Translations under genes and position numbers: made by a program | DNA from: Blasia pusilla | Lineage: Eukaryota | Assembly (NCBI GenBank): GCA_050084515.1 | Contig: CM114271.1 | Location: forward strand, 8,742,001-8,806,000 | Length of the DNA stretch: 64,000 bases | Direction: 5' to 3' | Part shown: positions 31,035 through 54,779 of the stretch, piece after piece | How positions within the stretch are numbered: the first letter of the stretch is position 1 | How the letters are laid out: every line of letters starts with the position of its first letter | Notes under the pieces: model-generated | Database searches by the model: none | What the model was told of the DNA's origin: nothing | What the model saw: the letters and a program-made list of their open reading frames with translations, nothing else

Positions 31035-32878
31035 GGGGGTTGGTATTCTGGCAGGAGAGAGTAAGAGAGGAGAGGAAGAGAGGAAGAGAGGAGAGTCTCT
31101 CTTCAAAAAAAAGGGCCAAATCCGCCTCCTCTCTTCAAAACTTTTTGACATATTTGAAATTTTTGTTTGCTTTCAAATTCATGAAATCTTTAGAAGAGAG
31201 TAGGTAGTGGTCCACATTCGGGCCTAAAAAAATCTCCTGTTTCCTGGGGGCGAAAAAAAAGTAGACATCATAAGACCACTACAAACATTTTTCCATCACT
31301 CTCCATGTGAGCCTAAGTTTCTTATCATTACCTGTCTCGGTCTACAAAAAGCAGTGCCCATGGGTATTTTTGTTGGAGGACCACCCGGATGCCAACCTCT
31401 CTTTTTGCAGGGATTTTTGCCTGCATCGTGGCCTCCCCTGAATTGCCCCATAACCAACTTTCTGTTGGTTATGAATGGTGTCTGCTCAAGACCAACTTTG
31501 TGAAATGTGAACACATGAGAGGATAATTGAACCAAAAAGTTGTTAGCTGTTTGGAGTAAAGAGGAATTGATGTCCCTTCATTCAGATCCTAAGGCTGAGA
31601 AACCGAGAAGCTGCACCCCTCCCAACCCGTAAGAAAGCTCACCATAAGAAAGGAAAGATTTTTAGAAGGAATTTTCTTCCACCCTGCACCCACGACGATC
31701 TAACAGGTTGGGAATCCGAAATGGCAATCCGACAGGTAGTAGGAATCCTGCACATCTTAGACAAGAAAAGAAGCCTACAACTGGTTTGACGAATGTAGGG
31801 GGACGAGCCAAACGTTAAGAAGCCCGCCACAATGCGTCAGAAGTTGGTCTCACAGGGAAAGAGTCCGATCACTCAAGCAGCCAACCTGTCATAATCCGAC
31901 AGCTTGCTTGGTAATGGTTAAAAAGTTGCAGTGGGCAAAAAGCAAAAAGTTGCAACCCGTCGGAATCATACGAGTTGCAAAATTGTAATTCTGAGTAGCT
32001 AAAAGAACACAATCCACAAGTCCAAAAATATATTCCAGCAAACTTTTACAAACACCATTATCGGTTGAAAAAATCTCGTCCTTTATTACCTCCGAAGGAA
32101 CCTCGGAAATGTACATTTGACCTAGTCTATGATTTCTTCAGCCTTGTCATCTACAAATTTACTCCTAACTCTCCTCGGTGACAGTACCAAAGGAATGTCC
32201 TGGGATACAAGTGGCTCCTCCGGCCGATTGTAGACGGGATAAAAATGTTGGCGATTTGAGAGCCTTGGCCCCCCAGTGCACGCCATAACGGTCCCATGTA
32301 ACCTGATTTGAGTCCCACCGCCTTCCTTGGCAAAAGATACCTTGTACGCTCGCAATGTGACACCCATCCAAAGTATCAATATGTGCTCCGTCCTTGGTAA
32401 TACCATTATGGCAATCGCAGGTAGTAGGAATCCAACACGTGAGAGAAGAAAAGAAGCCTCGCCGCCTTTACCGATTGAGGGGAAGGTGCCAAGGAAGAAG
32501 CTGGCTGTGATCGCCTCTTAAGTTGGACCAACAGGGAAAGAGTCCGATCAGGCAATCTATCGGAATCCAACAGGTTGCCTGGAAGTGGTAAAAAGGTGTT
32601 GTCGTCAAAAAGTGAAAAGTTGCAAGCAGGAGAAATCTGACGGGTTGCAAAATAGAAGTCCGCAGAGTACATAGACGATCACATTCGAAAAGACATAAAA
32701 AATGTTCAGCAAACTTTTACAAGCACCACCATCGTTTGAAAAAATCTTCTCCTTTATATCATCCGAAAAAAGCTCGGAACTGTACATTTGATCTATTCTA
32801 TGAAATCTTTTGCCTCATCATCAAAAAATTCCCTACTCCAAACGCTGCAGTCAAGTTGGGTCGTTGAGTTCTTTGAAC

Positions 32879-35800
32879 TCACTCGTCATCGTCCGAGAGC
32901 TCTTGCAAAATTACTTTCGGCCTTTCCCTCCCAATTTTCAGAATCGTTGGAAGTGACGATGGAGTCACTACCAATGGTGGGTTTGGAACCGGAGCTCTTG
33001 GCTTCGGTGGAGAGTTGTACGCCCCAACGAGCCCTTCAGATACGCGCTTTGCCGCTTGCAAGGTCAACAGTTCTGCCTTCCCTTGAGGCAGAGAATGTTC
33101 TGCCACTCGCCAGCGCCTTTGATAGTTGCCCTGAAAGTCCCACTAAGTCGAACACCAAGTCACCCGGCCTTGAGCAGAGCTCGATGAGCGTTGCATGTGG
33201 TGGCGATTTTTCCTTCCTCCCGTAAGGGGTACTGTCTTTCTTGCATGTAAATTCCGGGGGAATTGTACAAACTATCTAAGCTGTACCCATCTGAGCATGG
33301 ATCCAGAGGATCTTGGATCTTGAACACCTGGAAATTGTGCTCGGGCCGAACAAAGTAGTACACGTAGGAGTGGTCCATATGTAAAGAAGCACGTTGGAAA
33401 CAATGTCAGCAACTTGGCATAATGTGCAACACGTCACCAAAGAAGTCGGCTAGACCCTAGAGAACTTTTTCAATTAATAACTTTGGATAACCATCGGGTT
33501 GTTTTGTCCCTGACCAACCCGTCGCCTTTCCGACGGGTTAGTCAGGGACAAAACAACCCGTCGGGCTCTCCGTTGTTTTTGTCCGTGAGCAAACCGTCGG
33601 AAGGCGACGGGTTGCTGGCTTAGAGCAGTTCATGCTTGGCTGAGAGCAACCCGTCGCTTTCCGACGGGTTGCAGCTTTCCGGAAACACAGGGAAAAACCA
33701 AAAGCAACTGCAACCCGTCTGGTTCCGACGGGTTGTAGATACACCACGGTTTTCCCTATCTAAGCCAGCAACCCGTCGCCTTCCGACGGGTTGCTCACGG
33801 ACAAGGACAACGGAGATATACTATCGGAAATTAACACTCATTGAGCCTTACCCAAATTTGAAAATATATTTGATATTATACTGCAGGAATAGAGCCTTAC
33901 CCGAATCTGACTCGTCGCGGATCGGAGTGGGTACTCGTTTTTTATGATCCACGATTGCGCCGTCCTCCACTTTAGCGACCTATTGACGCACTGGAGGTTG
34001 AAGAGCTCGTCCTCGCTCCCTCCAGTCAACACCAAGAAGCAGCCCCTGTCACTCAGATAGGCGTCTGCAAAGGAGAACAATAGCACGATTTGGTCATAAG
34101 AGAGTGGCACATTCCACTCAGGTACCCCGTCCGACGGATTCTCGCCCCACAATCGCAACCCCGAGGATAGATCAGCGATCAAGAGATCCACCGCAACCTC
34201 TTCGACCACTCCATTCACCGTCCAGGCAGCATGCCCGTTTCGTTGGAGCTTCCGTCCCAGCGTTGTCAATTTATCGATGGCTGGTGTCAACGCTTGAGGA
34301 CTGAAGCTTTTCAGCTCATCCAGTTAAGGAGTAAACTGAAGGAAGACACTTGTCCGGGTCGTTGTTTGTATGTGTCTTCCCAATGATGATGGACTGTATT
34401 CTCCTTGTGACAACCCTGGCACCTCTCGCTTCCGCTTCTCCCGAGTCTGCGGATGGCTTGTCGGTGTCTCTATGACCTCAAACTCTGGTGGGGTTTTTTT
34501 CGCCGAGGACTTGGTCCGACCCTCTCTCCCCGCTCGCCCGGACGATTCCGCCTCTGGCCTTGAATCTTCACCCTCTCTTTGGGAAGACTCGGCCTCGGAA
34601 TTTTTCCCTCCCCTCGCCTTGCCTTTGAGACTCGTTGTGGATTTGTCTTTGGCTGTACGGACCTTGGAATCCAACTCAGCTGTCTCGTGGGCTTGCTCTT
34701 CCGCATCTCCTCCGAAGAAGTCTTCAGGCTGCACAAAATTGGGGATGTCGTCTTGTCCTGAGGCCACTGCATCATGAAGCACTCGTAAATCCTTATCACT
34801 GATGTCTTCAGGGTCGTTGAAGTCAAGCCAAATGGGGCAATTCTCCACCTCCCAATCGGACATGTGCTGCCCCATCTCCATGTCGTACATGGAGAATGTG
34901 TCTCCATCAGGCGGCGAAGCCCACAATTTCAAGGCTGCCGGTAATTTTCCCCAGGTACTTGCATTCTTACACTGGACGAGGTACGTGAAGACCATCCGTT
35001 GGGCAGCTTTTACTCAAACTGAATCGGCCGTCTGCCCGTGTAGATCTCGCTTCTTCTTTGCTTGATCCCGTTTGTTCCCCTCGATTTCTTCGTCAAGCTC
35101 TGCTTGAGGGAGGACGCAAACCTTGAACATTGTCTTGAATCCTGGGTTTTTGATTGGCTTGTCCCGGATGTCGTCGAGCCAAACCTCGAAATCTACAGAA
35201 CTTTCCAGGTTTGCTTCATCCGAAATGGGCTCTAATCTTTTGAGCTCGCTGCATCGCCCAAAGACCGACTTCCCGATAACCCGCAACGCGTCCCAGAATG
35301 ACCATTCGCGTAGCCAGTGGGAGATCACTGGATCGGACACACCTAGAGGATGGTGTGGCCCCCTCTTCTAGGCCTACGTGCCCTCGAGATTGATTTTCAT
35401 CAATCAGATCCTCCTAAACTCGCTTATGCGGGACAACGCAAACCGATGCACACGATCCAGGGACACTTTCTCCCCAATCCGACCTTGCGGATCTTCATCC
35501 CTTTTCCGCTGGCGCTTGATAATCGCCTTCAGCTCCTTGTAAAACTCCGGACCAAGTTCGGGGTTGAGAATGTTGATGTTTCGCTGCATCTTGCTCGCCG
35601 TGTATTTCGTGGCTGCAGATACTGCAACTTGGATGAATTTTGTGCGCTCAGACCCAGATACTTTCTCCCTCCACTCCAGCTCTAGCTCCAGTGCAGCGCT
35701 CTTCTTCGCGGCCTGTATCTTCGACCAGAAAAGGACGGTTACGGCTACATCTTGGGAAATAAACTTATTTGCCCAAGTTTTCTTTTTTATCTGAGCACCC

Positions 35801-37898
35801 TTTGCAAGCATCTGATTTACGGGCGTCACCAAGAACCCTTGTACTCTCCCGGTGCATCGTAAGCACCTTCTTCACCCGATCGCGATCCTGGATCCGGTGG
35901 TGGGTGACATTCCCCTCCGATACAATCCGCACATCCAAACTCAACCCGCCGAGAAAATTTGTAAGTTACATGGGTTCTGAACCCGTCGGACTCGACGGGT
36001 CGTCACAACTCAAGGTCGGATTCTAGAACGAAGCTAAATGATGCAACCCATCGAGTCCGACGGGTTGCATTCAGATTTGCTAATGCTGGTTTCAACCGTC
36101 GGACTCCGACGGGTTGTGCAATTGAACATACTAACGTGAACATAGCAACCCGCCGGAGTCCGACAAAGTTGCGCAATTGAATGGAAACTTGCAATTTGAC
36201 GTGAAATTTGCTAAACCAACTTCCGAATGCAACCCGCGTCGGACTCTCGGCGAGTTGATTTCGCCAAAAATAGTTCGAAGTCAAGCAACCCGTCGGACTC
36301 GACGGGTTGCTTTGGGCAAAACATACTAAACCGGTCGGTCGAACAACTCGCGGAGTCCGACGAGTTGCTTTCTTCAAAAAAATCCTGAAAAGGCGGCGAG
36401 TCGAGCAACCCGTCGGACTCCGACGGGTTGCTTTGGGCCAAAAACTTATTAAACATGTGGTCAGTCGAACAACTCGTCGGAGTCCAACAAGTTGCATTGT
36501 TCAAAAAACGTCATGAAAAAGCGTCGAGTCGAGCAACTCGTCGGAGTCCGACGAGTTGCTTTCGGCAAAAAAAGACCTAACCCATTCATCAATCGAGCAA
36601 CTTGTCGGAGTCCGACGAGTTGCGTTTGGCCAAAAGCATCCCAACAATAGTGCCGACCCAAACAACTTGTCGAAGTCCGATGGTTTGCAGCAAGAAGATA
36701 CTCACGTATTCATGGCATGCATTGCCATCTCCACCGTCGCCATGTGATGAGGGAATGGATGAAGGACCACTACCTTCACGAAAAAATGTGCCTCCAAGGA
36801 GTTGGGCCGCTCCTCTGCAAACTTGGTCCACGCCATGAACCTGTGATTTCCATCCCAGATGAAGAAATACAGATTCCTCATCCAGCTGAATTCCGTGCCC
36901 TCTACTTGCCTTCTGAAATCCTGGTCTCTCATCCTCCAGAATGTGTCGAGCTTATCCAAGTCCTCCTCCGTAACCAAGGCTTGGGTTCCATGCTCGTCGT
37001 AAGGCTGAACATAGAAGGGAGGAAAGTTGTTGACATAGGATGCTGTGGCCGCCGATTGTTTAAGCTTCGCGATGTCCTCGTCGGACTGAATTTTGCAGAT
37101 GTATTCCATTGTCCGCAATCGGTAGAGTGGAATCCTCGGGGCATTGTGGCCCTCCATGAATGCCATCTGCTTTACCACCTGTCAGAACCGGGACAAGATC
37201 AATAAGCTACACTGAATTCCCAATGAATTGCAATTCACATAATTCAAAAAACCTAGATCCTCTCTTACCCGCTCAAAAATTGGGTCGGTTTCTTGACCAG
37301 CCAACTTGTCTGAGACAGAAGCTGGAAAATCGATTGGGAACTCGTCGATCCGATAGAGGTCGATGTCTTCCGCCGGGCTTGGAGACGAGAATGACCGCTC
37401 TCCGGCTTCTTTGGCAATGTCCACCATCTCCACGCTGGCGGTCCTCATGACCTCGTCGTCCGTGATTTGAACTTCTGGCGTTTCTGCTATGTTGATTGTG
37501 TCCCCGGACTTCATCGGGGACATTTACCGCATCTCAACACTTTTGGTTGGACGGGCAGGGCTGTCGTTAATGGCTATCGCTTTATCCCTCCTCGCTTTAG
37601 CCAATTCTGCTCTCCTCAGCGACGCGTCCAGACGCTTCTTTTCTCTCTTTTCGTCGGCGATTCTTTTCTTCAAGGCCTGCGATGTCTCAGCCTCTGCGTT
37701 CTGTCTATCGAGCGCCTCTTGAACACGTCTCGCAAGAAGCTCCTGGTTGTGCATCTCCGCTTCCCTTTCCCGCTCCTCGATTTCCTGCTGCCTAATTTCA
37801 TTTGCCGAACGAGGCCCTGGAGATGCAGACGCATGAGTCATAATGGACTTCGGAGTGAAGCTCCCAGACTTGTTTGCTTGTGATTTTTTCCTCGTCAT
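32879..37898 (-). pseudogene. Copy 2 of a four-exon gene: coiled coil, ParB/Srx-like domain, unknown middle region, beta-class N6/N4 DNA methyltransferase-like domain
   Basis: Inferred exons 37898-37269, 37178-36706, ~35927-33901 and 33378-32879; donors GTAAGA, GTGAGT and GTAAGG with phases that join; motifs FFIWDGNHRFMAW, VDLLIADLSSG, LSDRGCFLV, SWIIKN and LCSRPGDLVFDLVGLSG; several stops and frameshifts. Confidence 0.78.
35980..36690. repeat. Intronic array of ~27-29-bp palindromes with roughly 60-65-bp spacing
   Basis: Perfect example AGCAACCCGTCGGA-C-TCCGACGGGTTGCT at 36404-36432; about ten variants in this intron; homologous arrays at ~18350-19240 and ~47100-47990. Confidence 0.95.
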
Positions 37899-38626
37899 TT
37901 TTTCCCGAAATGCCTCCACCTATGTCCACGATGAATCGCTTGATCAGTCGCCTTGCTGATGTCGAGACGAGTCACCTTGATGGGTAGCTCGAATCGTCTC
38001 GCGATCGTTCAGTCGAACCGTCTCGCTCTCGTTCGGTCAAACCGTCTTGCTCTCGTTCCCTCGTATCGATTCGTGATGACTCGCCGTGTGAAATGCCCCT
38101 TGGTATCTGATCAGCAGCTGCGCGGGAGAGAGAGCAATGGAGATCGCAAAATGAGAAACCGGAAATGAGCAATTTCTGCCCTATTTATACTTTTCTAGCC
38201 GTTGGGCTGACCGTTGGGTCCCGTCGTCCTTTTGACGGCGACGTGCCGGAGGTTACGGAAGTCTAGACGTGAAAAAATGGCAACCCGTCTGAGTCCAACA
38301 GGTTGCGCGCCTCCGCCGTCCTTGGTACGTTGCCACGTGCGCGAGCAACCCGTCGGAGACCGACGGGTTTCAACAAAATGAAGTGTGCTTCGCAACCCAC
38401 GTCTCTGCTTCCCAAATCCGGTAACACATTGCAACAGAATTGAATGTGTTGCAACAGAATTGGATCCATTGTGTAAGATAATGTCACCTACCGAATTCAT
38501 CTTGTCAGTAAAAATCTGTCAGGAGTATCTATTTTCCTATTCACTATGAATTAAAAATTCTCATTCTCATTCTCATTCTCATTCTTTTTCTCATTCTCAC
38601 CCTCCTCCCGTACGAAATTTCTGGGA
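37899..38626. promoter_or_regulatory. Divergent intergenic/promoter region of the element
   Basis: Lies between the two head-to-head genes; TATA-like GTATAAATAG on the minus strand at 38181-38190 (also in copy 3 at ~49462-49471); palindromes; (ATTCTC)n tract upstream of the transposase ATG. Confidence 0.5.
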
Positions 38627-41600
38627 ATGGATAATTATGTTAAGCTCACTTGTGGCAGTCATCTGGCGGCCCTTCCTCAATCAGAAATCATTCGACCCCA
38701 AGCTCGTGAGTCTTTCATAGCAGTGGATGAATTTTCTCTCTGTTCGATTTCTTCTCCAAATTGGAACCATCTTTGTATCCAAAGATGTTAGGGTGGACGG
38801 TACGGAAGACATAATAGGTGAGACGGTCCAGCCAGTGACCTCAGACCGTAAAGTATGGAATCTCCTACCTCTAGCAAATGGTCAATACAGAGTTTACGGC
38901 CTGCCCCTGAATTTTTTGTTTCCCAAGTAGACGGTCTAGAATTTCCTAGTGCTCCGAGCTCTACGTTTGCAACTCCAAGCTCTGCAGATCCGGCTTCGAC
39001 TCCAACTTCACATGCTCGTATCAATGTTGTTCTTCCTGAAGAGATTCCGGATGTTATCAATCTCAGTGGATCTGTCGGACACCAACCGAGCCCTCTGTCC
39101 GCCTACTCGTTCCTTTTGCGAGTATCAGGCAATAGTTTGCTTTCGTCTCTGGCCTTGAAAATGTTCAAGCACATTCTTGTCGACGAGCTTCCGCCCACGT
39201 ATGATGGTAATTGCATTTTTGAGTTGCCTCCACTTGCTGCTCCTGCTCAAAAGAAAGATGGAGGACGCCTGAAGGGTATGGACAGAAAGTCTGATTGTCA
39301 TCGATGGTGCAGGCTTCAAGGGACTAGTGCTTCAATTCCACATGGTCCTTGGATTGTCTCTCGCCGCCAATGCGTCGGAGCCTTGGAGTGTAGAAGTCGA
39401 GCATGCCCGTATCTAGAGCGCAACGGGCGAGTCAATACGTCGCAATTCCCCCCCAAGAATGGAGAAACTCCATACGAGGTTGGTGCCACCATACCGCTGG
39501 GAGGCCATCGATGTCCTCATTGTCAGGCATCGCCCTTCTACGTTGGAGCGTGTCCTGCATACATATTTTTCATTGTCCACGACTTGGGCTCCACGTCAGA
39601 GTACACAAGGCTGGAAGTTCATGTTGGCTCCCACACTCATCTTGTGACCAATGCAATTCAAAGACACACCAAGGAGGATGTGGCGAAGAAAGTTTCCGAG
39701 GTCTACAGAAACTCTCCGGGTTCAAAGCCCGAAGTGATCAAGCTCACAAAGGCATCACAAATTTGTGAACAATTGCTTGGAATCCCTCGACAGGGCGAGA
39801 TGACGGCGGCTGAGAAGAAAAAACTCTGGGAAAATCTCGCATTTCTTGCTAATCCTGAATGCTTCTGGAATTTGTTGCGTCAAATACGAGTTCTGGATGG
39901 AAAGACGGCCGAAATGGATGCCATCGCCAGAATCAAGGCCAACTCCAGATTTCCATTCATTCAAAGATGGCAGTTCATGGGCCAAGGAGGTGAGGGATCC
40001 AAGGCCTATGTCTTCAAAATATCAACCATAGGTCTGTCGAGTGGCCTCGATCTTATAGATCGAATGAGGGAAGGGGAAGATCTTTACGGCAGCTGGGTAA
40101 GCTTTGATATTTGCTACAGAGTGCTGAACGGATGGTTGACGATGGGTGCTCACGTTTATGACCATGTGGAGAAGGGACTCAAAACTATATTTGTCTGTGA
40201 AGTAAAGGCAGAAGACGTTGGCAGTTTGAAGATGTGCTGGTTACTCTTATTGGAGGTGGTGAAGGAAAACAAAAGACCACCTCCGGAAATTTATGGGTTC
40301 ATGGCAGACAATGCACAACCTAGGTGGATTGCTATCCGGGAAGTGTTCTTGGGTGGAGAGGTTCAACCGGAGAGGGAAAGGTCGGATGCTTTCCATTGGC
40401 AACAGTCTGTGACCCGGTACACCAAATCTTGCATCAAGGAGAATAAGAGGACAGAGCATGTCACTCTACTCCAACGCTGCAAGGACAGAAAAACCTTGAA
40501 GTAGGCCATGGAATGCCAGGAAGAACTTCATGGGTGGTGGAGGAAGCATGCGATTGAAGGGAAGTACAAAGAGTTGTGCTCTTGGTTGAGTTGGTGGACT
40601 GTACGTATGAGACAATGGGGAAACTTCATGCGTCCGGTGAGTTCACTATTTTGTCTTGTCAAGCTCACGCTGAGAATTTTTTGTAAAGTTGTAGCTCAGG
40701 GTGAGAAGCGTGGGAACTATAGGGATTTCAAACCAAAGAAACCAAGCAAGCTGTCGGATGCGACGGGTTGCCCGAGTGTGCAACCCGACGGAAACCGACG
40801 GGTTGCATCCAGATGTTTGGTGCAACCCGAGTGTGCAACCCGTCGGGACCCGACGGGTGACGGAGTCGTTCATGGGATGCCTCGGCCTTGCAACCCGTCT
40901 GGTTCCGACGGGTTGCAGTAGGTGGGTTTAAGGTTACAACATGTCGGGACCCGACGGGTCATGGAGTCGTTCATGGGATGCCTCGAGCCTGCAACCCGTC
41001 TGGTTCCGACAGGTAGCTTATTTCTTTGACTCCTGAGTTATTTTTGTTCCCTTCTAACATTGCCGTCGTTGCAGGGATTGAACGTTCATGAAAATGCCCT
41101 CTGCCCCAACACAAGTGGAGCAGAAAGTGTTCATTCCTCCTGGAAGTCGTCACAAGCATGCCAAGGAATTTCACTTGTGGAGGCATGCCAACAAGACCAG
41201 GCAAGAGCAATGCTACAGTCTGCAGCATCCCATATCTTCCTCACAAAAGGCATAACAAAAGGAAAGGGGCCGTCAATCTACGAGCTCTATGTCACGGTGG
41301 CTATGAGATCTGGTGATGAAAAAATGTATATGGAAGCCTTCAACCGGTGCGTAGCTGGAACTCCCCTCGAGCAAGACGTACACATTGGTGGGGATATTTG
41401 TGGGCGGGTTTCAAGACGTCCCATACAGATGGTGGTAGAGCAGTCCGAGCGAGACTCGTGGAGGCCAGATAAGTATCTTGACTTCAGGCAGGTGAAGAGG
41501 CAGCATCGAGGAACGAATCCGGTGATTGATTTGGATGAGGAAATTACGCCGCCCAGGTATTCGGGGACCCCGGACCCGCCCCAGATCCGTGATTGAGTTA

Positions 41601-42406
41601 CTTCTCCAAAATCAGTGAATGTTTTATTTCAAAAGCCCTCCGTTGCTGGAAGTTTGCAACATCCTGTCATTGGGGTGGTTCAACAATATGGGATTCCGGT
41701 AATGGAGGTGGATTGCAACCTAAAACGGTGGCATATATCTCGGAGCAACCCAGGACGTGGACCCACCTGCAGGGCAGGATCTGATGGCATTAGGAGAGCA
41801 TGCGGCACTTTCCTAAATTTGGCCCATCGCCGCAGGTACGAACTGCACTCAAGACGAAGTGGACAATCTTACAAGTGCCGGTTTCAGACTCGTCGACGAG
41901 GGAAGTTTGGAGCATGTTCGTATTAGAGAGACCTTCGCATTTCGTATTCAACCCAAGATTGATGTCAACATGTACCCGGAGAAGGTGGATGATCTCAATC
42001 CATTATTTCTGTTTGAGTCTAGAAATGGGGTGAAGAGAAACAGAATGTGTAGGCCAACAGTGGAGAGAGCAAAGCGAATTGCATCAGCTCGGGAGGCAAA
42101 AATGGAGATCATCGCCATGAAAGATTTCTTGAGTGGCAATGGAATAGGAAGGATGTATTGGTTCAGGAACAACACTGTAAATTCAAGTGTCACAGGGGTG
42201 TATGTGGTGCACATCTGTTGCTTTCCCACATGTTCATGTGATGACTTTGTCCAAAGAGAGACAAGTGGCAAAAGGTATTTCCCTTGTAAGCACATGTAGT
42301 ATGTGTTGCTGGTAGTTTTAAGAGAGTCGGAGGTAGGAGTATAGGAATCCACCAACCAATTCTGTCCCTCAAAGAAGTGCGAAGTATTTTAAACAAACCA
42401 CTTTGA
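38627..42406 (+). pseudogene. Copy 2 MULE-type transposase (Cys/His Zn-binding N-terminal region, DDE core, C-terminal SWIM), with one intron at 40637-41074
   Basis: CVGALECRSRACPY...CPHC...C...HVGSHTH; WVSFDICY (D1); FMADNAQP.WIAIREVF...AFHWQQ (D2 and H); after the phase-0 GT..AG intron, PNTSGAESVHSSWK (E); SWIM CSCDDF...PCKHM; stops and a ~170-bp deletion at ~41817. Confidence 0.9.
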
Positions 42407-44034
42407 GGATGCAAAATGAGGTTTTAGATTGTACTTTTATTTTTCCTGAACCTTCACTTTGAGCTTGAACTCTATTCAGCCCGGGGCAAATGATAGATTT
42501 TTTCCAGACCTTGGATGGAAAAAGTGATTGGTTCCACACTTATGATTCCACTGATTTTTCAGTTTTCTAAATTTTGTGCAATTTGCAACTGGTCGGACTC
42601 AGAGGGGTTGCCAAAATATGGAAGAGGAAAAAAAAATTGTGGGACTGCTTAATATATGAACAAAAAAGTGCAAAAAAATTCAAACAAAAAGTTTCCTCTC
42701 TTCAACCCAACGGAAACTCTCTTAAAAAAAAAGTATCGATTTCGGTTGAGGTAGTTTCCTCTGGGGGCTGGTATTCTGGTAGGAGAGAGTAAGAGAGGAG
42801 AGTCTCTCTTCAAAAAAAAGGGCCAAATCCGCCTCCTCTCTTCAAAACTTTTTGACATATTTGAAATTTTTGTTTGCTTTCAAATTCAGGAAATCTTTAG
42901 AAAAGAGTAGGTAGTGGTCCACATTTGGCCCTAAAAAAACCTCCTCTTTCCTGGGGGCGAGAAAAAAGGAGACATCATAAGACCACCCTAAACATTTTTC
43001 CATCACTGTCCATGTGAGCCTAAGTTTCTTAACATTCCTCAGATCGGTCAACAAAAGCAATGCCCTAGGTATTTTTGTTGGAGGACCACCCGGATGGGTA
43101 CCTCTCTTTTTGCAGGGATTGTTGCCTGCATCATGGCCTCCCCTAAATTGCTCCATAACCAACTTTCTGTCGGTTATGAATGGTGTCTGCTCAAGACCAA
43201 ATTTCTGAAATGTGAAAAAATCAGATCCTAAGGCTCAGAAACCGAGAAGCTGCACCCCTCCCAACCCATAAGAAAGCTCACCATAAGAAACGAAAGATTT
43301 TTAGAAGTGATTTTCTTCCACCCTGCACCCACGATGATCTAACGGGTTGGGAATCCAAAATGGCAATCCGACAGGTAGTAGGAATCTTGCACATCTTAGA
43401 CAAGAAAAGAAGCCTACAACTGGTTGGACAAATGAAGGGGAACGAGCCAAAAGTCAAGAAGCCCGCCACAATGCCTCAGAAGTTGGTCTCACCGGGATAG
43501 AGTCCGATCACTCAAGTAGTCAACCTGTCGGAATCCGAGAGGTTGCCTGGGAATCCAACACGTCTGAGAGAAGAAAAGAAACCTACGCCTGCCTTTACAA
43601 GTTGAGGGGAAGGTGCCAAGGGAAGAAGCCCGCCAGACTGCCTGATCCAAAAGGGTCCGATCAGGCAACCTGTCGAAATCAGACAGGTTTCCTGGAGGTG
43701 GTAAAAAGGGTCCAGTGGTCAAAAAGCGAAAAGTTGCAAGGAGGAGAAATCCGACGGGTTGCAGTGGTCATAAAGTGAAAATTGCAAGCAGGAGAAATCC
43801 GACGGGTTGCAAAGTAGAAGACCGTGGAGTACATAGACGATCACATTCGAAAAGAAAAAATGATCAGCAAACATTTACAATCACCACCATCGATCGAAAA
43901 AATCTTCTGCTTTATATCATCCGAAAAAAGCTCGGAATCAGACATTTGATCTATTCTATGAAATCTTTTGCCAAATTATCAAAAACTCCCTACTCCAAAC
44001 GCTGCAGTCAAGCTGGTCGTTGAGTTCTTTGAAC

Positions 44035-47000
44035 TCACTCGTCATCGTCCGAGAGCTCTTGCAAAATCACTTTCGGCCTTGCCCTCCCGATTTTGGGAAT
44101 CGTTGGAAGTGACGATGTAGTCACTACCAAGGGTGGCTCTGGAACCATAGCTCTCGGCTTCGGTGGAGAGTTGTACGCCCCAACGAGCCTTTCAGATTCG
44201 CCTTTGCCTCCTTGCAAAGGTCAAGCGATTCTCGCCTTCCTCGAGGCGTAGAATGTTCTCGCCACTCGCCAGCGCCTCGATACTCGCCCCTGAAAGGCCC
44301 ACTAAGTCGAACACCAAGTCACCCGGCCTTGAGCAGAGCTCGATGAGCGTTGCATCGTGGTGGCGACTTTTCCTTCATCCCGAAGGGGTCTTGTCTTGCA
44401 TGTAAATTCCGGGGAAATTGTACAAACTATCTAAGTGTACCCATCGAGCATGGATCCACAGGATCATGGATCTTGAACACGGAAATTGTGCTCGGGCGAA
44501 CGAAGCAAAGACACGAGGAGTGGTCCATCGAAAATCAAGCACGAAACAATGTCAAAAACTAAAGAAGTCGCTTGAGAAGATTTTCAATAATCGACTTTGG
44601 ATCAACTTGTCTTGAGTCCGACGGGTTGTTTTGTCCGGACCAACCGCCGGAACCCGGACGGGTTTGCGGTTGCTTTTGGGTTTTCCAAGTTGATTTTGGT
44701 TTTGGATGCAACCCGTCGGAAGGCGACGGGTTGTCGCCTAGACCAGCCCATGCTCTTTGAGAGCAACCCGTCGCTATTAGACGGGTTGCATCCAAAAACC
44801 AAAATCAACTGCAACCCGTCGGGTTCCGACGGGTTGCAGGTACACCGCGGTTTTCCCTGTGTATGTGGGAAAGATGCAACCCGTCGGAAACCGACGGGTT
44901 GCTCTCAGCCGAGCATGGGCTGCTCTAAGCCAGCAACCCGTCGCCTTCCGACGGGTTGCTCACGGACAAAAAAAACCCAGATTGACTCATTCTACACATC
45001 ATTATAAGATAATTGAAATTATTGTACAGGAATTGAGCCTTACCCGAATCTGACTCGTCGCGGATCGGAGTGGGTACTCATTTTTTATGATCCACGATTG
45101 TGCCGTCCTCCACTTTAGCGACCTCTTGATGCACTGGAGGTTGAAGAGCTCGCCCTCGCTCCCTCCGATCCAACACCAAGAAGCGACCCTGTCACTCGGA
45201 TAGGCGTCGCAAAAGGAGAACAAAAGTGCACCTGGTCATAAGTGAGCGGCGATTCCACTCGGTACCTCGTCCCTCGGATTTTCGCCCAAAGTCGCAACCC
45301 GAGGGCAGATCGGCGATCAAGAGATCCACCGCAACCTCTTCCACCACTCCATTCACCGTCCGGCAGCGTGCGTTTCGTTGAGCTTCCGCCCCAGCGTTGT
45401 CAAATTTTCGGCGGCGTTGTCGACGCTTGAGAATCAAGTCGTTTAGCTCATCCAGTAAAGAGGTGAACTGAAGGAGGACGCTTGTCCGGGTCGTTGTTTG
45501 TCAGTGTCTTCCCAAGGATGATGGGTTGTATTCTCCTTGGGACAACCCCGGCACCTCTCGGTTCCGCTTCTCCCTAGTCTGGGGACGGCTTGTCGGGGTT
45601 TCTATGACCTCGGATTCTGGTGGCGTTTTCTTCACCGAGGACCTGGTCCGACCCTCTCTTCCTGCTGGGACGATTCCGCCTCTGGCCTCTCATCTTCAGG
45701 CTCTCTTTGGGAAGTCTCGGCCTCTGAATTTTTCCCTCCCCTCGCCTTGCCTTTGAGACCTGCTGTGGATTTGTCTTTGGCTGTCCGGACCTTGGAAGCC
45801 AACTCAGCTGTGTCGTGGGCTTGCTCTTCTGCATCTCCTCCGAAGAAGTCTTCAGGTTGGACGAAATTGGGGATGTCGTCTTGTCCTGAGGCCACTGCAT
45901 CATGAAGCACTCGTAAGTCCTTATCCGTGATGTCTTCAGGGTCGTTGAAGTCGAGCCAAATGGGGCAATTCTCCACCTCCCAATCTGACATGTGCTGACC
46001 CATCTCCACGTGGTACATGGAGAATGTCTCTGCATCCGGCGGCGAAGCCCACAATTTCAAGGCTGCCGGTAATTTTCCCCACGTACCTGTGTTCTTACAC
46101 TCAACGAGGTACCTGAATACCATCCGTTGGGTAGCTTTTAGTCGAACATTATCGGCCGTCTACTCATGTAGATCTCGCTTCTTCTTCGCTTGATCCCGTT
46201 TGTTACCCTCTACTTCTTCGTCAAGCTCTGCCTGAGGGAGGACGCAAACCTTGAACATGGTCTTGAATCCAGGGTTCTTGGTTGGCTTGTCCCGGATGTC
46301 GTCGAGCCAAACCTCGTAGTCTCCAGAACTTTCAAGGTTTGCTTCCGGCGGAATGGGCTATAATCTTCTGAGCTCCATTTGCGCACCGCCCAAAGATGGA
46401 CTTCCCGATTACCAACGCGCCCCGTAACGACCATTCGCGTAGCCAATGCGCAAGATCATCGGATCGGACACACCCGGAGGATGGTGTGTCGCCCTCTTCG
46501 GGCCTCGAGCCCTCGAGATCGATTTTCATCGTCGTATCCTCCTGAACTCGCTAATCCCGGATAACGCAAAACGATGCACGCGATCCGACACTTTCTCCCC
46601 AATCCGAGCATGCGGATCTTCATCCCTCTTCCGCCGACGCTTGATAATCGCCTTTGAGCTCCTTGTAGAACTCCGGACCAAGTTCGGGGTTGAGAATCTT
46701 GATGTATCGCTGCATCTTGCTCGCCGTGTATTTCGTTGCGGGAGATACAACAACTTGGATGAATTTGGCGCCGCCTGACGCAGATACCTTCTCCCTCCGC
46801 TCGGCTCAGCCCCAGCGGCGCTTTTCTTCGGCTTTGTATCTTCGACCAGCAAAGGATGGTTACGGCTGCATCTTGAGAAATAAACTTGTTTGCCCAAGTT
46901 TTCTTCTTAATCTGAGCACCCTTTGCAAGCATCTGATTGACAAGGGCATCGCCCAAGAACCCCCTGTACTCTCCCGGGTGCGTCGTAAGCACCTTCCTCA

Positions 47001-49186
47001 CCCGATCGCAGTCCTGGATCCAATGGTGGGTGACATTCCCTTCCGATACAATCTTGCACATCCAAACTCAACACGTCAGGAAATAACATGGGTTCCTGCA
47101 ACCTGTCAGACTCCGACGGGTCGTCACAGCTCAGGGTTGGATTCTAGCAACAAGCTAAATGATGCAACCCGTCGGAGTTCAACGGTTTGCATTCAGATTT
47201 GCTAATGCCGGATAAGCAACTCGTCGGACTCCGACGGGTTGCTGGACTGCACGCTTTTTCGGATGTTTTGTTAAGATTGCAACTCGTCGGACTCCGACGA
47301 CTTGTTTGATTGAACATAGATTTAACTAGTTTTTGGCCCAAAGCAAACCGTCGGAGTCCGACGGGTTGCTCGATAGGCCGCCTTGTGAGGTTGTTTTTTT
47401 AAGGGTTGCTTGCCCTCGAAGTCCGACGGGTTGCTTGCCTCGAAGCTATTTTTCCCCATATCAACCCGTCGGAGTCCGACGGGTTGATTTCGGCCAAAAA
47501 CTGTTTCGAGGCAAGCAACCCGTCGGACTCCGACGGGTTGCTTTGGGGCAAAAACCTTCTAAACCTGCAGTCACTCGAGCAACTTGTCGGACTCAGACGA
47601 GTTGCATTCTTAAAAAAAAACCTCACAAGGCGGCCTATCGAGTAACCCGTCGGACTCCGACGGTTTGCTTTGGGCCAAAAACTAGTTAAATCTATGTTCA
47701 ATCAAACAAGTCTTCAGAGTCCGACGAGTTGCACTCTTCAAAAAACATCCTCACAAAGCGAAACTTTGTCGAGCAACCCGTCGGACTCACGGTTTGCTTT
47801 GGGCCAAAAACTAGTTAAATCTATGTTCCATCAAACAAGTCGTCGGAGTCCGACGAGCTGCAATCTTAAAAAAACATCCGGAAAAGCGTGCAGTCTAGCA
47901 ACCCGTCGGAGTCCGACGAGTTGCTTTCTGCCTAAACAAACCTAACCCATTCATCAATCGAGCAACTCGTCGGAGTCCGACGAGTTGCGAAAGTGTTAAA
48001 GATACTCACGTGTTCATGGCATGCATTGCCATCTCCACCGCCGCCATGTGATGAGGGTATGGGTGAAGGACCACCGCCTTCGCACGTAAATGTGCCTCCA
48101 ATGAGTTGGGGCGCTCCTCCGCAAACTTGGTCCACGCCATGAACCGTGATTTCCATCCCGGATGAAGAAATGCGATTCCTCATCCGGCTGAATTCCGTGC
48201 CCTCAACTTGCCTTCTCAAGTCCTGGTCTCGCATCCTCCGAATGTGTCGAGATTTTCCAAGTCCTCCTCGGTAACTGAGCTTGGGTTCCATGCTCGTCGT
48301 AAAGGTGAACATAGAAGGGAGGAAAGCTGTCCCACGAGGATGTATCGCCGCCGATTGTTTTAGCTTTGCGATGTCCTCGCTTGATCAGATTTCGCGGGAC
48401 GTATTCCATTGTCCTTAATCGGCAGAGTGGAATCCTCGGGCGTTGTGGCCTCCATGAGTGCCATCCGCTTTACCACCTATCGAACCGGGACAAGAGGAAT
48501 AAGCTACACCGAAATCCCAATGAATTGCAATTCACATAATTAAAAACCAGAACCTCTCTTACCATTTCGAAAATGGAGTCGGTTTCTTGACCACTAACTT
48601 GCGAGACAGGGTGGCAAATCGACCGGGAACTCGTCGATCCGATAGAGGTCGATGTCCTCCGCCGGGCTTGAGTCAAGAATGACCGCTCTCCGGCTTCTTC
48701 GCCATGTCCACCATCTCCACGTTGGCGGTCCTCATGACCTCGCTGCGTCATCGATTTGAACGGTGTTGTTTCCACTATGTTGATTGTGTCCCCGGACTTC
48801 GTGGGGGACATTTCCCTCATCTCAAAACTTGCGGTTGGATGGGCTGGGCTATCATCAATGGCTATCGCTTTTTCCGGCCTCGCTTTAGCCAATTCTGCCC
48901 TCCTCACCGATGCGTCCAGACGCTTCTTTTCTCTCTTTTCGTCGGCGATCCTTTTCTTCAAGGCCTGCGACGTCTCGGCCTCTTCGTTCTGTTTATCTAG
49001 CGCCGCTTGAACGCGTCTCGCCAGAAGCACTTGGTTGTGCATCTCCGCTTCCCTTTCCCGCTCCTCGATTTCCTGCTGCCTAATTTCATTCGCCGAACGA
49101 GGCCCATGAGAAGCTCACGCAGGAGTCCTAATGGACTTGGGAGTGAAGCTCCCAGACTTGTTGGCTTGCGTTTTTTTCCTCGTCAT
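44035..49186 (-). pseudogene. Copy 3 of the ParB-like / methyltransferase-like gene, with many small indels
   Basis: Colinear with copy 2; VDLLIADLPSG in ORF 45192-45437; MVFRYLVECKN...CPIWLDFNDPED in ORF 45632-46123. Confidence 0.75.
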
Positions 49187-50351
49187 TTTTGCCGGAAATG
49201 CCTCCACCTATGCCCACGACAAATCCCTTGATCAGTCGCCTTGCTGATGTCGAGATGGGAGCTCGTCTTGCCTTGATGGATAGCTCGAATCGTCCCGATA
49301 TCGCTCGGTCGAACCGTCTCGCTCTCGTTCCCTCCTATCGACTCGCGATGTGTCGCCGCGTGAAATGCCCCTTCAGATCGATCGGATCGCCATGCAAGGG
49401 AGAGTGAGGAGTGAGGAATGAAGATCGCGAAATGAGAAACCGGAAATGAGCGAGTTCTGCCCTATTTATACTTTTCTAGCCGTTGGGCTGACCGTTGGGT
49501 CCCGTCGACCTTTCGACGACGACGTGCCGAATGTTACGGAAGTCCGGACGTGAAAAATCGCAACCCGTCGGAGTCCGACAGGTTGCGCGGCTCCGCCATC
49601 CTGGTATCGCCGCCCGGTGCGCGCGAGCAACCCTTCGGAGACCGACAGGTTGAGCGCCTCCGTCGTCTTCGGAAAAGAACGCGAGGTACCCGCGCAACCC
49701 GTCGGAGACCGACATGTTGCGCGCCTCCGCCGTGTTTGGGATGGGAACGGGACGTATTTTGGGCAATCCGTCGGAGACTGTTAGGTTGCATGCTTCCCTC
49801 ATCAAGGGTTAGGAACGATGGCTTCCCGTGCAAGTTGTCGGAGTCTGGCGTCGCACCACAAGCGACGCGCTTGCGCAACCCGTTGGACGGCGACGGGTTG
49901 CACGCCTCGCCGTCTTTGGGCTAAAGGCGAGGGCAGGCACCCGCGAACTCGCCGGGAACAGACGGTTTGCACGCCTCCGGCATCTTCGAGCAAGAAGGAG
50001 CGGTATCGGCAAGAAGTCGCCGAGAGCGACGGGTTGCTCGCCGACAATGTTTAGCGAGCGTGCAACCCGTCCGATGCCGACAGGTTGCGTGCTTCGTAAG
50101 CTTCGGGTAATTTCGAGTTACCAGGACTCCGACGGGTTCCAAGTGATGCGCAACCCTCTGCTTCCCAAATCCGGTAACATATTGCAATAGCATTGAATGT
50201 GTTACAGAATTGGATCCATTGTGTCAGACATTCTCCCCCACCCAATTCATCTTGTCAGTAAACATCTGTCAGGAGTATCTATTTCCTATTCACTATAAAT
50301 TAAATATTCTCATTCTCATTCTCAGTCTCCTCCCGTAGGAATCTTCTTGGA

Positions 50352-53300
50352 ATGGATAATTATGTTAAGCTCACTTATGGCAATCATCTGGCGGCCCTTC
50401 CTCAATCAGAAATCATTCGACCCCAAGCTCATGAGTCTTTCGTAGCAGTGGATGAAAATTTTCCGTCTGTTCGATTTCTTCTTCAAATTGGAACCATCTT
50501 TGTATCCAAAGATGTTAGGGTGGAAGGTACGGAAGAAATAATAGGTGAGACGGTCCAGCCAATGACCTCAGACCAGTAAAGTATGGAATCTCCTACATGC
50601 TTAAATGGTCAATACTGAGTTTACGGCCCGCCTCGATTCGTCTGTTTCCCAAGTAGACGGTCTAGAATTTCCTAGTGCTCCGAGCTCTACGTTTGCAACT
50701 CCAAGCTCTGCAGATCCGGCTTCGACTCCAACTTTGCACACTCGTAACAATGTTGTTCTTCTTGAAGAGATTCCGGATGTTATCAACCTCAGCGGATCTA
50801 TCGGACACCAATCGGGCCCTGTGTCCGCCTACTCGTTCCTCTTGCGAGTATCAGGCAATAGTTTGCTTTCGTCTGTGCCCTTGAAAATGTTCAAGCCCAT
50901 TCTTGTCCTCAAGCTGCCGCCCACGTGCGATGGTAATTGCATTTTTGAGTTGCCTCCACTTGCTGCTCCTGCTCAAAAGAAGGATGGAGGACGCCTGAAG
51001 GGTATGGACAGAAAGTCTGATTGTCATCGATGGTGCACGCTTCAACGGACCAGTGCTTCCATCCCAGATGGTCCTTGGATTGTCTACCGCCGCCAATGCG
51101 TGGAAGCCTTGGAGTGTAGAAGTCCAGCATGCCCGTATCTAGAGGGCAACGTGCAAGTCAATACGTCGCAATTCCCCCCCAAGAATGCAGAAACTCCATA
51201 CGAGGTGGGTGCCACAATACCGCCGGGAGGCCATCGATGTCCTCATTGTCGCACGCCTTCTGCGTTGGAGCGTGTCCTGCATACATATTTTTCATTGTCC
51301 ATGACTTGGGCTCCACGTCAGAGTATACAAGGCTGGCAGTTCATGTAGGCTCCCTCACTCATCCTGTGACCGATGCAATTCAAAGACACATCAAGGAGGA
51401 TGTGGCGAAGAAAGTAGCCGAGGTCTTCAGAAACTCTCCGGGTTCAAAGCCCGGGGTGATCAAGCTCACAACGGCATCAAAAATTTGTGAACAATTGCTT
51501 GGAATCCCTCGACAGGGCGAGATCACGGCGGTTGAGGAGAAACAACTCTGGGAAAATCTCGCATTTCTCGCTGATCCTGAATGCTTTGGGAATTTGTTGC
51601 GTCAAATACGAGTTCTGGATGGAAAGACGGCCGAAATGGATGCCATCGCCAGAATCAAGGCCAACTCCAGATTTACATTCATTCAGAGATGGCAGTTCAT
51701 GGGCCAAGGAGGCGAGGGATCCAGGGCCTATGTCTTCAAAATGTCAACCACAGGTCCCTCGAGTGGCCTCGATCTTATAGATCGAATGAGGGAAGGGAAG
51801 ATCTTTACGGAGCTGGTCGACTTTGATATTTGCTCTGAGTCTTTGAACGGATGGTTGACGATGGGTGCTCACATTTATGACCATGTGGAGAAGGGACTCA
51901 AAACTATATTTGTGTGTGAAGTAAAGGCAGAAGACGTTGGCAGTTTGAAGATGTGATGGTTACTCTTATTGGAGGTGGTGAAGGAAAACAAAAGGCCACC
52001 TCCGGAAATTTATGGGTTCATGGCGGACAATGCACAACCTGGGTGGATTGCTATTCGGGAAGTGTTCTGGGGTGGAGAGGTTCAACCGGAGAGGGAAAGG
52101 TCGGATGCTTTCCATTGGCAACAGTCTGTGACCCGATACACCAAATCTTGCATCAAGGAGAATAAGAGGATAGAGCATGTCATTCTACTCCAACGCTGCA
52201 AGGACAGAAAAACCTTGAAGCAGGCCATGGACTGCCAGGAAGAACTTCATGGGTGGTGGAGGAAGCATGCGATTGAGGGGAAGTACAAAGAGTTGTGCTC
52301 TTGGTTGAGTTGGTGGACTGTACGTATGAGACAATGGGGAAACTTCATGCGGCAGGTGAGTTCACTATTTTGTCTTGTCAAGCTCACGCTGAGAATTGTT
52401 TGTAAAGTTGTAGCTCAGGGTGAGAAGCGTGGAAATTATATGGATTTCAAACCCAAGAAACCAAGCAAGCTGTCGGATGCGACGGGTTGCCCGAGTGTGC
52501 AACCCGACGGAAACCGACGGGTGGCCCGAGTGTGCAACTCGACGGAAACTGACGGGTTGCCCAAGTGTGCAACTCGACGGAAACCGACGGGTTGCCCAAG
52601 GGTGCAACCCGACGGAAACCGACGGGTTGCATCCAGATGTTTGGTGCAACCCGAGTGTGCAACCCGTCGGGACCCGACGGGTCACAGAGTCGTTCATGGG
52701 ATGCCTCGGCCTTGCAACCCGTTGGGTTCCGACGGGTTGCACGAGGTGGGTTTAAGGTTACAACACGTCGGTTTCCGTCGGGTCGCAGAGTCGTTCATGG
52801 GATGCCTCGGGCCTGCAACCCGTCTGGTTCCGACAGGTCGCTTATTTCTTTGACTCCTGGGTTATTTTCGTTCCCTTGTAACATTGCCGTCGTTGCAGGG
52901 ATTGAACGTTCATGAAAATGCCCTCTGCCCCAACACAAGTGGAGCAGAAAGTGTTCATTCCTCCTGGAGGTCGTCACAAGCATGCCAACAAATTTCACTT
53001 GTGGAGGCATGCCAACAAGATCAGGCAAGAGCAATGCTACAGTCTGCAGCATCCCATATCTTTCTGGTGATGAAAAATTGTATGTCGAAGCCTTCAACCG
53101 GTGCGTAGCTGGAACTCCACTCGAGCAAGACGTACACATAGGTGGGGATATTTGTGGGCGGGTTTCAAGACGTCCCATACAGATGGTGGTAGAGCAGTCC
53201 GAACGAGACTCGTGGAGACGAGATAAGTATCTTGACTTCAGCAGTGAAGAGGAAAGATCGAGGAACGAATCCGGTGATTGATTTGGATGAGGAAATTACA

Positions 53301-54330: not shown

Positions 54331-54779
54331 GGATGCAAAATGAGGTGGTTGATTGTACTTTTATTTTTTTCTCAACCTTCACTGTGAGCTTGAATTCTAT
54401 TTAGCCCGGGGAAAATGATAGATTTTTTCCAGACCTTGGATGGAAAAAGTGATTGGTTCCACACTTATGATTCCACTGATTTTTCAGTTTTGTAAATTTT
54501 GTGCAATTTGCAACTCGTCGGACTCACAGGGGTTACCAAAATATGGAAGAGGAAAAAAAAACTGTGGGATTGTTTAATAAATGAACAAAAATGTGCAAAA
54601 AATTCACACAAAAAGTTTCCTCTCTTCAACCCAACGGAAACTCTCTTAAAAAAAAGTATCTATTTCGGTTGAAGGTAGTTTCCTCTCTCCTCTCTCCTCT
54701 CTTCCTCTCTTCCTCTCCTCTTACCGCACCTCGTTTCCTCTCTCCTCTCTCCTCTCTTCCTCTCCTCTTACCGCACCTC

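Follow-up and report, generated by a model that had tools for sequence, protein, structure and literature searches.

We analyzed a 64,000-nucleotide stretch of the Blasia pusilla genome (assembly GCA_050084515.1, contig CM114271.1, positions 8,742,001 to 8,806,000 of the forward strand), hereafter the window and numbered from its first letter, in which a Mutator-like DNA transposon carries an accessory gene. The predicted product of this gene combines a candidate ParB/sulfiredoxin (Srx)-fold domain, encoded by exon 2, with a C-terminal domain resembling beta-class DNA methyltransferases. By self-comparison, the window contains three full copies of a unit of ~11.7-12 kb and the start of a fourth. 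In copy 2 the accessory gene lies on the minus strand and is divergent from a plus-strand gene (38852-42299) whose product contains a GFMADNAQ core, with a SWIM motif (CxC..CxH) at its C-terminus. No Mutator-like element (MULE) model of Pfam matched this plus-strand gene at E<=1, and SWIM scored below its cut-off (E 0.0046, 16.9 bits against 19.6); the nearest named ESM Atlas clusters to its open reading frame (ORF) were MULE, ZSWIM and SWIM (best score 0.95).

Target site duplications of about 9 bp are a hallmark of Mutator elements. Copy 3 is bordered by a perfect 9-bp duplication, GTTTCCTCT, at 42754-62 and 54733-41, and copy 2 is flanked by TTGCCAGCA (31026-34) and TTGCTTGCA (54780-88), a target duplication that agrees at 7 of 9 positions. 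When copies 2 and 3 are removed, the frame of a Ty3/gypsy pol gene is restored (...EKWEWLPA joined to CQTTFKELK...) between reverse transcriptase (RT) and ribonuclease (RNase) H. The element is a Mutator-like DNA transposon and, in the window copies, the ParB-methylase gene is its accessory gene. A tandem, head-to-tail arrangement of copies 2 and 3 was considered and rejected; nested insertion with target duplications fits. An inverted-repeat search of 30800-43300, a range that does not include the true right end of copy 2, found no terminal repeats, and the sole clear terminal inverted repeat is a weak one of 30 bp, GA-rich and of low complexity (31066-95 against 54692-721). The element termini (31035-31100, 54680-54780 and 26600-26646) are low-complexity stretches rich in (GA)n/(CT)n.

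Exon 2 and its conserved motif

Exon 2 of copy 2 is open over 157 codons plus 2 nt and carries FFIWDGNHRFMAW, with the motif itself reading YFFIWDGNHRFMAW. It is preceded by ...ctgacAG (37180-37179), followed by GTGAGT (36705-36700) and joined in phase 0 to exon 1 across a GT..AG intron (37268-37179). The long homologs P0006, P0010, P0012 and P0029 continue beyond ...NLN, and exon 2 is therefore an internal exon. The stop after ...HAMNT was ruled out as the end of the protein, given these longer homologs and the exon 2 splice signals, GT donor included, which are kept in 3/3 copies. Among the three window copies, exon 2 is open in copy 2 only: copy 1 has an in-frame TAG and copy 3 several 1-nt deletions (Table 1). 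A sequence-only reading of the window had likewise described exon 2 as open in copy 2 and its motif as recurring in copy 1. The motif does recur there, as YFFIWDGNHRYMAW; the ORF named for it (19196..19450) is in another frame of that stretch, and the ORF that encodes it is 19267..19485 on the minus strand.

A HMMER search of 1.84 billion representatives with the exon 2 peptide yielded 105 homologs at E<=1e-3, 28 of them at E<=1e-10 (best 2.5e-20), with identities of 25-38%. Conservation was counted in an alignment of 58 sequences (A1), and residue numbers follow the exon 2 peptide. The pattern x-V-W-D-G-N-H-R-x-x-A-W was seen in most homolog matches. W81 is invariant (58/58), and G110 is found in 55, N111 in 57, H112 in 56, R113 in 53 and W117 in 56 of the 58 sequences; D109, adjoining GNHR, is D in 48 and E in 7. 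At least 80% of rows keep P17, L18, V27, R28, L39, F43, Y48, F55, W77, F88, F105, D109, G110, N111, H112, R113, W117, H131, V134 and N157; the counts for R28 and N157 are 47/54 and 47/51, and M153 is found in 39/51. In the segment F105-x-V-W-D-G110-N-H-R113, a hydrophobic strand is followed by the GxxR form of a P motif. The sequence-only reading had depended on DGNHR being conserved among distant homologs, and at 25-38% identity the motif is indeed kept.

Relatives with a named source come from a liverwort (Riccia) and from ferns. A word-based search with P0012 as query found 18 'hypothetical protein' relatives in the liverwort Riccia sorocarpa, on source contigs of 8 different lengths, and a profile search found 2 proteins in the fern Adiantum. 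A homolog search with exon 2 that was limited to longer proteins returned none. Between exon 2 of copies 1 and 2, the nonsynonymous rate (dN) is 0.116 and the synonymous rate (dS) 1.34. The resulting dN/dS of 0.086 therefore indicates strong purifying selection on the domain during the divergence of the two copies.

Predicted fold of the N-terminal domain

An AlphaFold2 model of the exon 2 domain, built on A1, reached a predicted local distance difference test score (pLDDT) of 91.1 and a predicted TM-score (pTM) of 0.86. Foldseek returned 259 PDB matches at E<=10, the best being ParB with cytidine diphosphate (ParB-CDP, 6sdk_A; E 0.025, prob 1.00, TMq 0.46). Among the best 30 of the 259, 26 are ParB, Noc, KorB, PadC, sulfiredoxin or SbnI, one more (2hwj) we take to be ParB-like, and 3 unrelated entries have a prob of at most 0.06; the first 18 matches listed are ParB-CDP, sulfiredoxin, Noc and SbnI. 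Against BFVD there were 354 matches (best E 4.7e-3), and the best 50 comprise 19 named ParB, Spo0J, sulfiredoxin, partition or occlusion, 2 DNA methylases, 2 DNA-sulfur-modification proteins, 3 with other names and 24 unnamed. Such a structural comparison had been proposed in the sequence-only reading, whose assignment of exon 2 to the ParB/Srx type it upholds at the level of the fold: proteins of this fold come out on top in both databases, with weak scores. We regard the case that exon 2 encodes a ParB/Srx-fold domain, as modeled, as one of moderate strength.

Family models gave hints below threshold. No Pfam model matched exon 2 or the neighboring ORFs at threshold. Among the members of A1, the sub-threshold matches were DUF1015 (5/58, best E 0.0056) and DndB (1/58) in Pfam, the DGQHR family TIGR03187 (4/58, best E 0.001) in NCBIfam, and phrog_1033, a ParB-like partition family (1/58), in PHROGs; all appear to point to the ParB/Srx superfamily. 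The ESM Atlas neighbors of exon 2 were unnamed clusters and one with ParB_N in 11% of its members, which we treat as a lead only. Also near exon 2 in that atlas lie two clusters, a fungal one (Ascomycota) in which 31% of members carry DUF3723 and a phage one with DUF6551 in 98%, possibly further remote relatives of the domain.

A 2025 survey (PMC12704722) describes GxxR as the P motif of the ParB-CTPase fold, through which the fold binds cytidine, adenosine or guanosine triphosphate (CTP, ATP or GTP), and states that neither sequence nor AlphaFold3 predicts nucleotide specificity. Similarly, the consulted part of PMC4619093 gives QR ... DGQHR ... FxxxN for DGQHR/DndB and DUF262 domains and F(G/S)GCHR as the sulfiredoxin signature. 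The pattern of the present domain, V-R ... D-G-N-H-R ... (M/F)-x-x-x-N, seems to lean to the DGQHR/DndB type and not to the CTPase clamps, which have GERRxR.

A helical middle region and a methylase-like C-terminus

With long homologs as tblastn queries, downstream exons of the accessory gene were located in all three copies, those of the methylase-like domain at E 1.5e-5. A model of full-length P0121 from Riccia (1104 aa), computed from an alignment of 77 rows, had a mean pLDDT of 64.5. The ParB-like domain (residues 91-262) scored above 90 and an all-helical region (268-450) about 90; residues 661-804 were disordered, and a C-terminal alpha/beta domain (~820-1075) scored 50-90. No helix-turn-helix (HTH) was identified after the ParB-like domain, either in PDB sequence searches or with Pfam, where seven long homologs matched 0 families at E<=1.

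At the C-terminus of the fern protein P0123, the N6_N4 DNA methylase model PF01555 scored 42.2 bits (cut-off 26.7), and it matched 4/16 Riccia proteins below cut-off (best 25.9 bits). Foldseek of the P0121 model against PDB gave 31 matches at E<=1e-3, of which the top ones are all beta-class amino-methyltransferases, led by M1.HpyAVI (E 2.5e-6, TMt 0.57-0.69) and followed by MboIIA, CcrM, M.BceJIV, the rotifer N4CMT, M.PvuII and M.RsrI. The S-adenosylmethionine (SAM)-binding motif I, of the FxGxG type, is well kept and reads GDIVIDFAGGWGAT in Riccia, VVLDIFAGTGT in the fern and GDLVFDLVGLSG in the window, where RPGDLVFDLVGLSG is found in copy 2 at 33039-33275 (frameshifted), in copy 1 in ORF 15315-15671 and in copy 3 at 44195-44374. 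The motif IV position is occupied by VDLLIADLSSGL in ORF 33838-34323. On these sequence and model grounds, the C-terminus of the protein is predicted to be a beta-class N6/N4 DNA methyltransferase-like domain, and the function of the gene has to be read differently as a result.

The fern protein P0122 (Adiantum nelumboides, 714 aa) joins the ParB-like homology and Retrotrans_gag (E 4.2e-9) in one polypeptide. Either a nested insertion or a chimeric gene model may account for this.

Palindrome arrays in the non-coding DNA of the element

Allowing at most 2 mismatches, the core CGTCGGANNCCGACG has 132 strand matches in the window against 0.34 expected. These form 71 palindrome loci, 69 of them inside element copies, in tandem arrays with periods of 64/128, 55 and 35 bp. 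The number of loci varies, with 20 in copy 1, 17 in copy 2 and 31 in copy 3. Each copy has four clusters in syntenic positions: two in introns of the accessory gene (its last intron and the one immediately downstream of the ParB exon), one in the promoter that both genes share and one in a transposase intron. The intron sequences of copies 1 and 2 can no longer be aligned, yet the clusters are still at the same positions. Retention of the palindromes with turnover suggests a function in cis.

The search pattern did not cover the six arm positions beside the core; these are complementary between the arms in 52-66 of the 71 loci, and their variants are compensatory (C-G/T-A and T-A/A-T). Co-variation of this kind would fit repair of one arm templated by the other, or selection that maintains the potential to form a hairpin or cruciform. 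Paired changes are also visible between single loci, such as ACCCG...CGGGT at 36404-36432 and ACTCG...CGAGT at 36532-36560, and at the outermost arm pair 24 loci have T-A and 14 have A-T.

Search for prokaryotic relatives

Two scans of 185,579 prokaryotic species genomes revealed no bona fide prokaryotic relative of the N-terminal domain. The scan with alignment A4 gave 3 pattern matches, of which 0 were confirmed. The DNA pattern WDGNHRxxAW occurred at 6 loci, five of them chance ORFs with the motif alone. The sixth (L006; CADCWO010000058.1, 1-4691) is a true homolog (profile E 3.9e-69) on a contig with 45% guanine-cytosine (GC) content in a cyanobacterial-labelled bin. It contains both the ParB-like and the methylase-like halves, split over several frames in an intron-like manner, and is apparently more intact than the window copies. 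Because of this intron-like structure, the 45% GC and the 4.7-kb contig, we read L006 as probably eukaryotic DNA in the bin and not a prokaryotic member of the family.

Comparison with known systems

Judging by domain content in sequence and model, the accessory gene seems to bring a two-domain combination of phage type, ParB with a methylase, into a eukaryotic transposon. The cited part of the 2025 survey reports fusions of the ParB fold to N6_N4 methylases as enriched in phages and prophages (PMC12704722). Those ParB-PF01555 fusions and the element protein have in common an N-terminal ParB/Srx fold with GxxR, a C-terminal beta-class fold, the motif order IV ... I and a mobile carrier. In contrast to the phage genes, the element gene is eukaryotic, intron-bearing and housed in a Mutator-like transposon, and its product has a helical or disordered spacer of ~550 residues between the domains, a motif IV of the form D-x-P-[ST] and an N-terminal domain unrecognised by PF02195. 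The same survey names sulfiredoxin as the commonest eukaryotic representative of the ParB fold, and its Pfam-driven design would miss the present family (PMC12704722).

The closest eukaryotic precedent is the set of PAG genes in red-algal Plavaka elements. In the portion of the preprint considered here (bioRxiv 10.1101/2025.02.11.637652), PAG3 is a ParB-like protein (HHpred best 7BNR_B, E 0.29) with a 2-oxoglutarate (2OG) oxygenase and with tandem inverted repeats adjacent, PAG2 combines a PF01555 methylase with SET, and PAG genes also occur in Zisupton and Chondrus Mutator elements. By that description, PAG2 and PAG3 resemble the present gene as accessory genes of large DD(E/D) transposons, with a PF01555 domain and mostly degenerate copies, and PAG3 further in its weak ParB-like match (7bnr_B is also among the PDB matches listed here) and its inverted-repeat tandem arrays. 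Here, unlike in Plavaka, a single polypeptide contains both the ParB-like and the methylase-like domain, with neither 2OG oxygenase nor SET, and the host is streptophyte-like, not a red alga.

Two further groups resemble the N-terminal domain. For DGQHR/DndB (TIGR03187, PF14072) and DUF262/GmrS, the published pattern, as quoted above, parallels VR ... DGNHR ... (M/F)xxxN, and their models are those that recur below threshold here, none at a curated cut-off; the element domain differs in a helical insert of ~45 residues (W77..F88) between strands, and its partners are neither Dnd nor HNH proteins. Canonical ParB, Noc and KorB share the N-domain fold, an arginine-bearing P motif and palindromic arrays in cis. 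They differ in that the element protein lacks a recognised HTH, a C-terminal dimerisation domain and GERRxR, and in that no ParA partner was seen in the element.

VANC of the Arabidopsis VANDAL elements may be a functional counterpart, as an accessory protein directed to tandem motifs within the non-coding DNA of its own element; according to the part of PMC5735166 relied on here, it causes loss of DNA methylation and targets short motifs in tandem repeats in non-coding regions. Both are Mutator-type accessory proteins, with short motifs in tandem in the non-coding DNA of the element and turnover of these motifs between related elements. We claim no kinship in sequence or fold, and VANC brings about a loss of DNA methylation whereas the element protein carries a methylase-like domain. 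Finally, the portion of bioRxiv 10.1101/2021.02.12.428880 that we used describes, for liverworts, prokaryotic-type N4-cytosine methyltransferases of the host that have a canonical TSPPY. The open-access papers and preprints searched did not yield any account of a Mutator element of the plant lineage whose accessory gene joins ParB and a methylase in a single chain.

A candidate self-targeting accessory protein

We propose, with a probability of roughly 0.7, that the accessory gene encoded a protein of ~1,000 residues made up of a ParB/Srx domain, a helical middle and a methylase-like end. The ParB-type domain would bind a nucleoside triphosphate (NTP) through R28, G110-N-H-R113 and N157, the presumed equivalents of Boxes I, II and III; we rate NTP binding as somewhat probable. 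The domain might then switch the methylase-like domain or direct it to its target, and that it gates or targets this module on the element's own DNA is a proposal we hold at slightly below even odds. Within that DNA the likely sites would be the palindrome arrays at the four syntenic non-coding positions, although we name them as the target only tentatively. By analogy with VANC in VANDAL or PAG2/PAG3 in Plavaka, the purpose could be to set or block a DNA mark to the element's benefit.

Several observations weigh against this proposal. Structural similarity is modest: none of the 259 PDB or 354 BFVD matches of the N-terminal domain reached E<=0.001, and their TM-scores were 0.34-0.52. No Pfam, NCBIfam or PHROG model, PF02195 ParB_N and its clan included, was at threshold in any of the 58 members, and PDB sequence and profile searches with the peptide, A1 and A2 gave no matches or chance-level ones. 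The match of R28 to Box I and of N157 to Box III is based on order and secondary structure, with no printed structural alignment. Relative to the family consensus, copy 2 carries C19Y, R28C, F43A, G47S, W77L and E89R. Copy 1 has the same departures except R28C and keeps R28; the shared changes would be features of the lineage, and R28C in copy 2 is probably decay.

At the other end of the protein, the canonical motif IV of the beta class is (D/N/S)PP(Y/F/W). This form was found in 0 of the 15 sequences that cover the motif, which read D[MLIV]P[STF]G, and the motif is non-canonical elsewhere too (DFPSN in the fern, DVPED in L006, DLSSG in the window). With D-x-P-[ST] in place of (D/N/S)PP(Y/F/W), catalysis by the methyltransferase-like domain is therefore doubtful and a role in binding only is possible. 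The protein and the palindromes are linked by co-residence alone. Moreover, all three window genes have in-frame stops and frameshifts within homology-supported coding sequence, which in copy 2 are TAA 37526-37524, a frameshift near 35830 and stops at 35404-6, 35374-6, 35368-70 and 35014-6. The three window copies are pseudogenes and none is functional today.

Other explanations have to be weighed against the same data. The domain could be a ParB-like nuclease or NTPase of the Osa, GmrS or P. furiosus type that nicks or degrades DNA, for transposition or against competitors, with no methylase switch. ParB/Srx members with DG(Q)(Q/H)R-type motifs are reported to show NTPase and nuclease activity in the sections of PMC4619093 and PMC10853773 cited here, many proteins with a 'ParB-like nuclease domain' are among the BFVD matches listed, and the conserved D109 stands beside GNHR. 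DNA cleavage, however, is already supplied by the transposase, and the stable fusion to a methylase-like domain in the liverwort, the fern, L006 and the window points to a role in modification or recognition; we consider a nuclease unlikely.

No better placed is the model put forward in the sequence-only reading, in which a CTP-type switch loads as a clamp at parS-like palindromes and then, like ParB, Noc or KorB, slides from there along the element. In its favor, the best structural matches listed include ParB-CDP, Noc and KorB, GxxR is conserved, the palindromes have arms of 12-13 bp in tandem arrays that resemble parS clusters, and a helical region modeled with high confidence directly follows the domain, in the position of the ParB HTH; a clamp has likewise been proposed for Plavaka PAG3 in the consulted part of bioRxiv 10.1101/2025.02.11.637652. 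Nevertheless, the C-terminus is methylase-like and not a ParB-type dimerisation domain, no HTH was demonstrated, Box II is DGNHR and not GERRxR, and the sub-threshold matches are DGQHR, DndB and DUF1015, not ParB_N. The compensatory arm changes (C-G to T-A, T-A to A-T) would be no less expected of a hairpin or cruciform than of a site bound by a dimer. We consider this model unlikely, and sliding-clamp action of the protein in general appears improbable.

A purely structural or DNA-reading factor, with the N-terminal domain as a ligand-free scaffold and a dead methylase as binding module, would agree with a motif IV that is non-canonical in every sequence seen and with the 17/28 purified ParB-fold proteins for which PMC12704722 gives no NTP binding in vitro. 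Near-invariance of G-N-H-R, R28, H131 and N157 at 25-38% identity is, however, hard to explain without a pocket, and the low dN/dS also speaks against a scaffold, which we rate as quite improbable. A sulfiredoxin-like redox repair enzyme is scarcely credible despite the human and plant sulfiredoxins among the top structural matches listed, since the catalytic Cys of F(G/S)GCHR (as given in the cited part of PMC4619093) is Asn in 57/58 sequences, so that the domain is not a sulfiredoxin, and it is housed in a transposon protein of ~1,000 aa.

Under the proposed ParB-methylase reading, DNA transposons of the land-plant lineage join a short list of mobile elements with DNA-modification modules, namely retrotransposons with DNMTs or DAMs, KDZ/Plavaka elements with TET/JBP, the red-algal PAG2/PAG3 and VANDAL with VANC. 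The system offers a single protein, a single palindrome and one possible mark, is testable, and bears on how transposons handle host silencing as well as on the use of the ParB-fold NTP switch in eukaryotic chromatin. A bolder version, which is a long shot, would make the protein a self-directed epigenetic device: NTP-gated ParB-type loading at parS-like arrays in introns and promoter of the element itself, followed by writing of N6-methyladenine or N4-methylcytosine (6mA/4mC) along the element or by occupation of CG-rich sites that would block 5-methylcytosine (5mC) there. If true, it would amount to anti-silencing by a phage-type machine within a Mutator element of the land-plant lineage, and such elements could be a reservoir for the prokaryote-like N4-cytosine methyltransferases of liverworts.

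Other features of the window

The coordinates of the main features are collected in Table 1.

Table 1. Features of the accessory gene, the transposase gene and the element copies in the window.
Feature	Position	Strand	Basis or remark
Exon 1, charged low-complexity N-terminal region	37269..37898	-	ATG 37898-37896; TAA 37526-37524, where copy 3 has E
Exon 2, copy 2, entire predicted ParB/Srx-fold domain (157 aa), open	36706..37178	-	sequence, splice sites, homologs, model, Foldseek
D-G-N-H-R, putative Box II / P-motif equivalent (GxxR)	36840..36854	-	sequence, alignment
Intron 2 (GTGAGT ... AG), tandem palindrome array of period 64/128 bp	35940..36705	-	acceptor set by homolog alignment
Middle exons, all-helical in P0121 model	34324..35939	-	copy 2 frameshift near 35830 and four in-frame stops
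Methyltransferase-like domain, first half	33841..34323	-	VDLLIADLSSGL at motif IV position
Palindrome cluster, 4 loci, last intron of accessory gene	33590..33790		
Last exon(s), methyltransferase-like second half	32882..33405	-	motif I RPGDLVFDLVGLSG; frameshifted in copy 2; copy 1 equivalent ORF 15315-15671
Exon 2, copy 1	19273..19743	-	YFFIWDGNHRYMAW; in-frame TAG 19486-19488
Exon 2, copy 3	48012..48445 (approximate)	-	broken by 1-nt deletions
Divergent intergenic (promoter) region	38200..38400		palindrome 38351-38365
Putative MULE-type transposase gene	38852..42299	+	intron 40786-41011 with 5 palindromes
Element copy 2	31035..42762		last 38 bp at 54742-54779; inside Ty3/gypsy pol ORF
Element copy 3	42763..54732		within right end of copy 2

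A 24-bp tandem repeat (37989-38058, 2.9 copies) lies just 5' of the accessory ATG, in the shared promoter or 5' leader. On the plus strand, the Ty3/gypsy pol gene split by the two Mutator-like copies retains RVT_1 at 29757-30770 and RT_RNaseH_2 plus integrase at 54789-56401. The apparent end of this retroelement, ...ACATTACA, is at 62916, and the truncated fourth element copy adjoins it from 62917; no pair of long terminal repeats (LTRs) was found for it. At the left end of the window, positions 1-2564 of the minus strand encode a Ty1/copia-type gag and integrase (Retrotran_gag_2, gag_pre-integrs, rve, SH3_retrovirus) that extend past the window.

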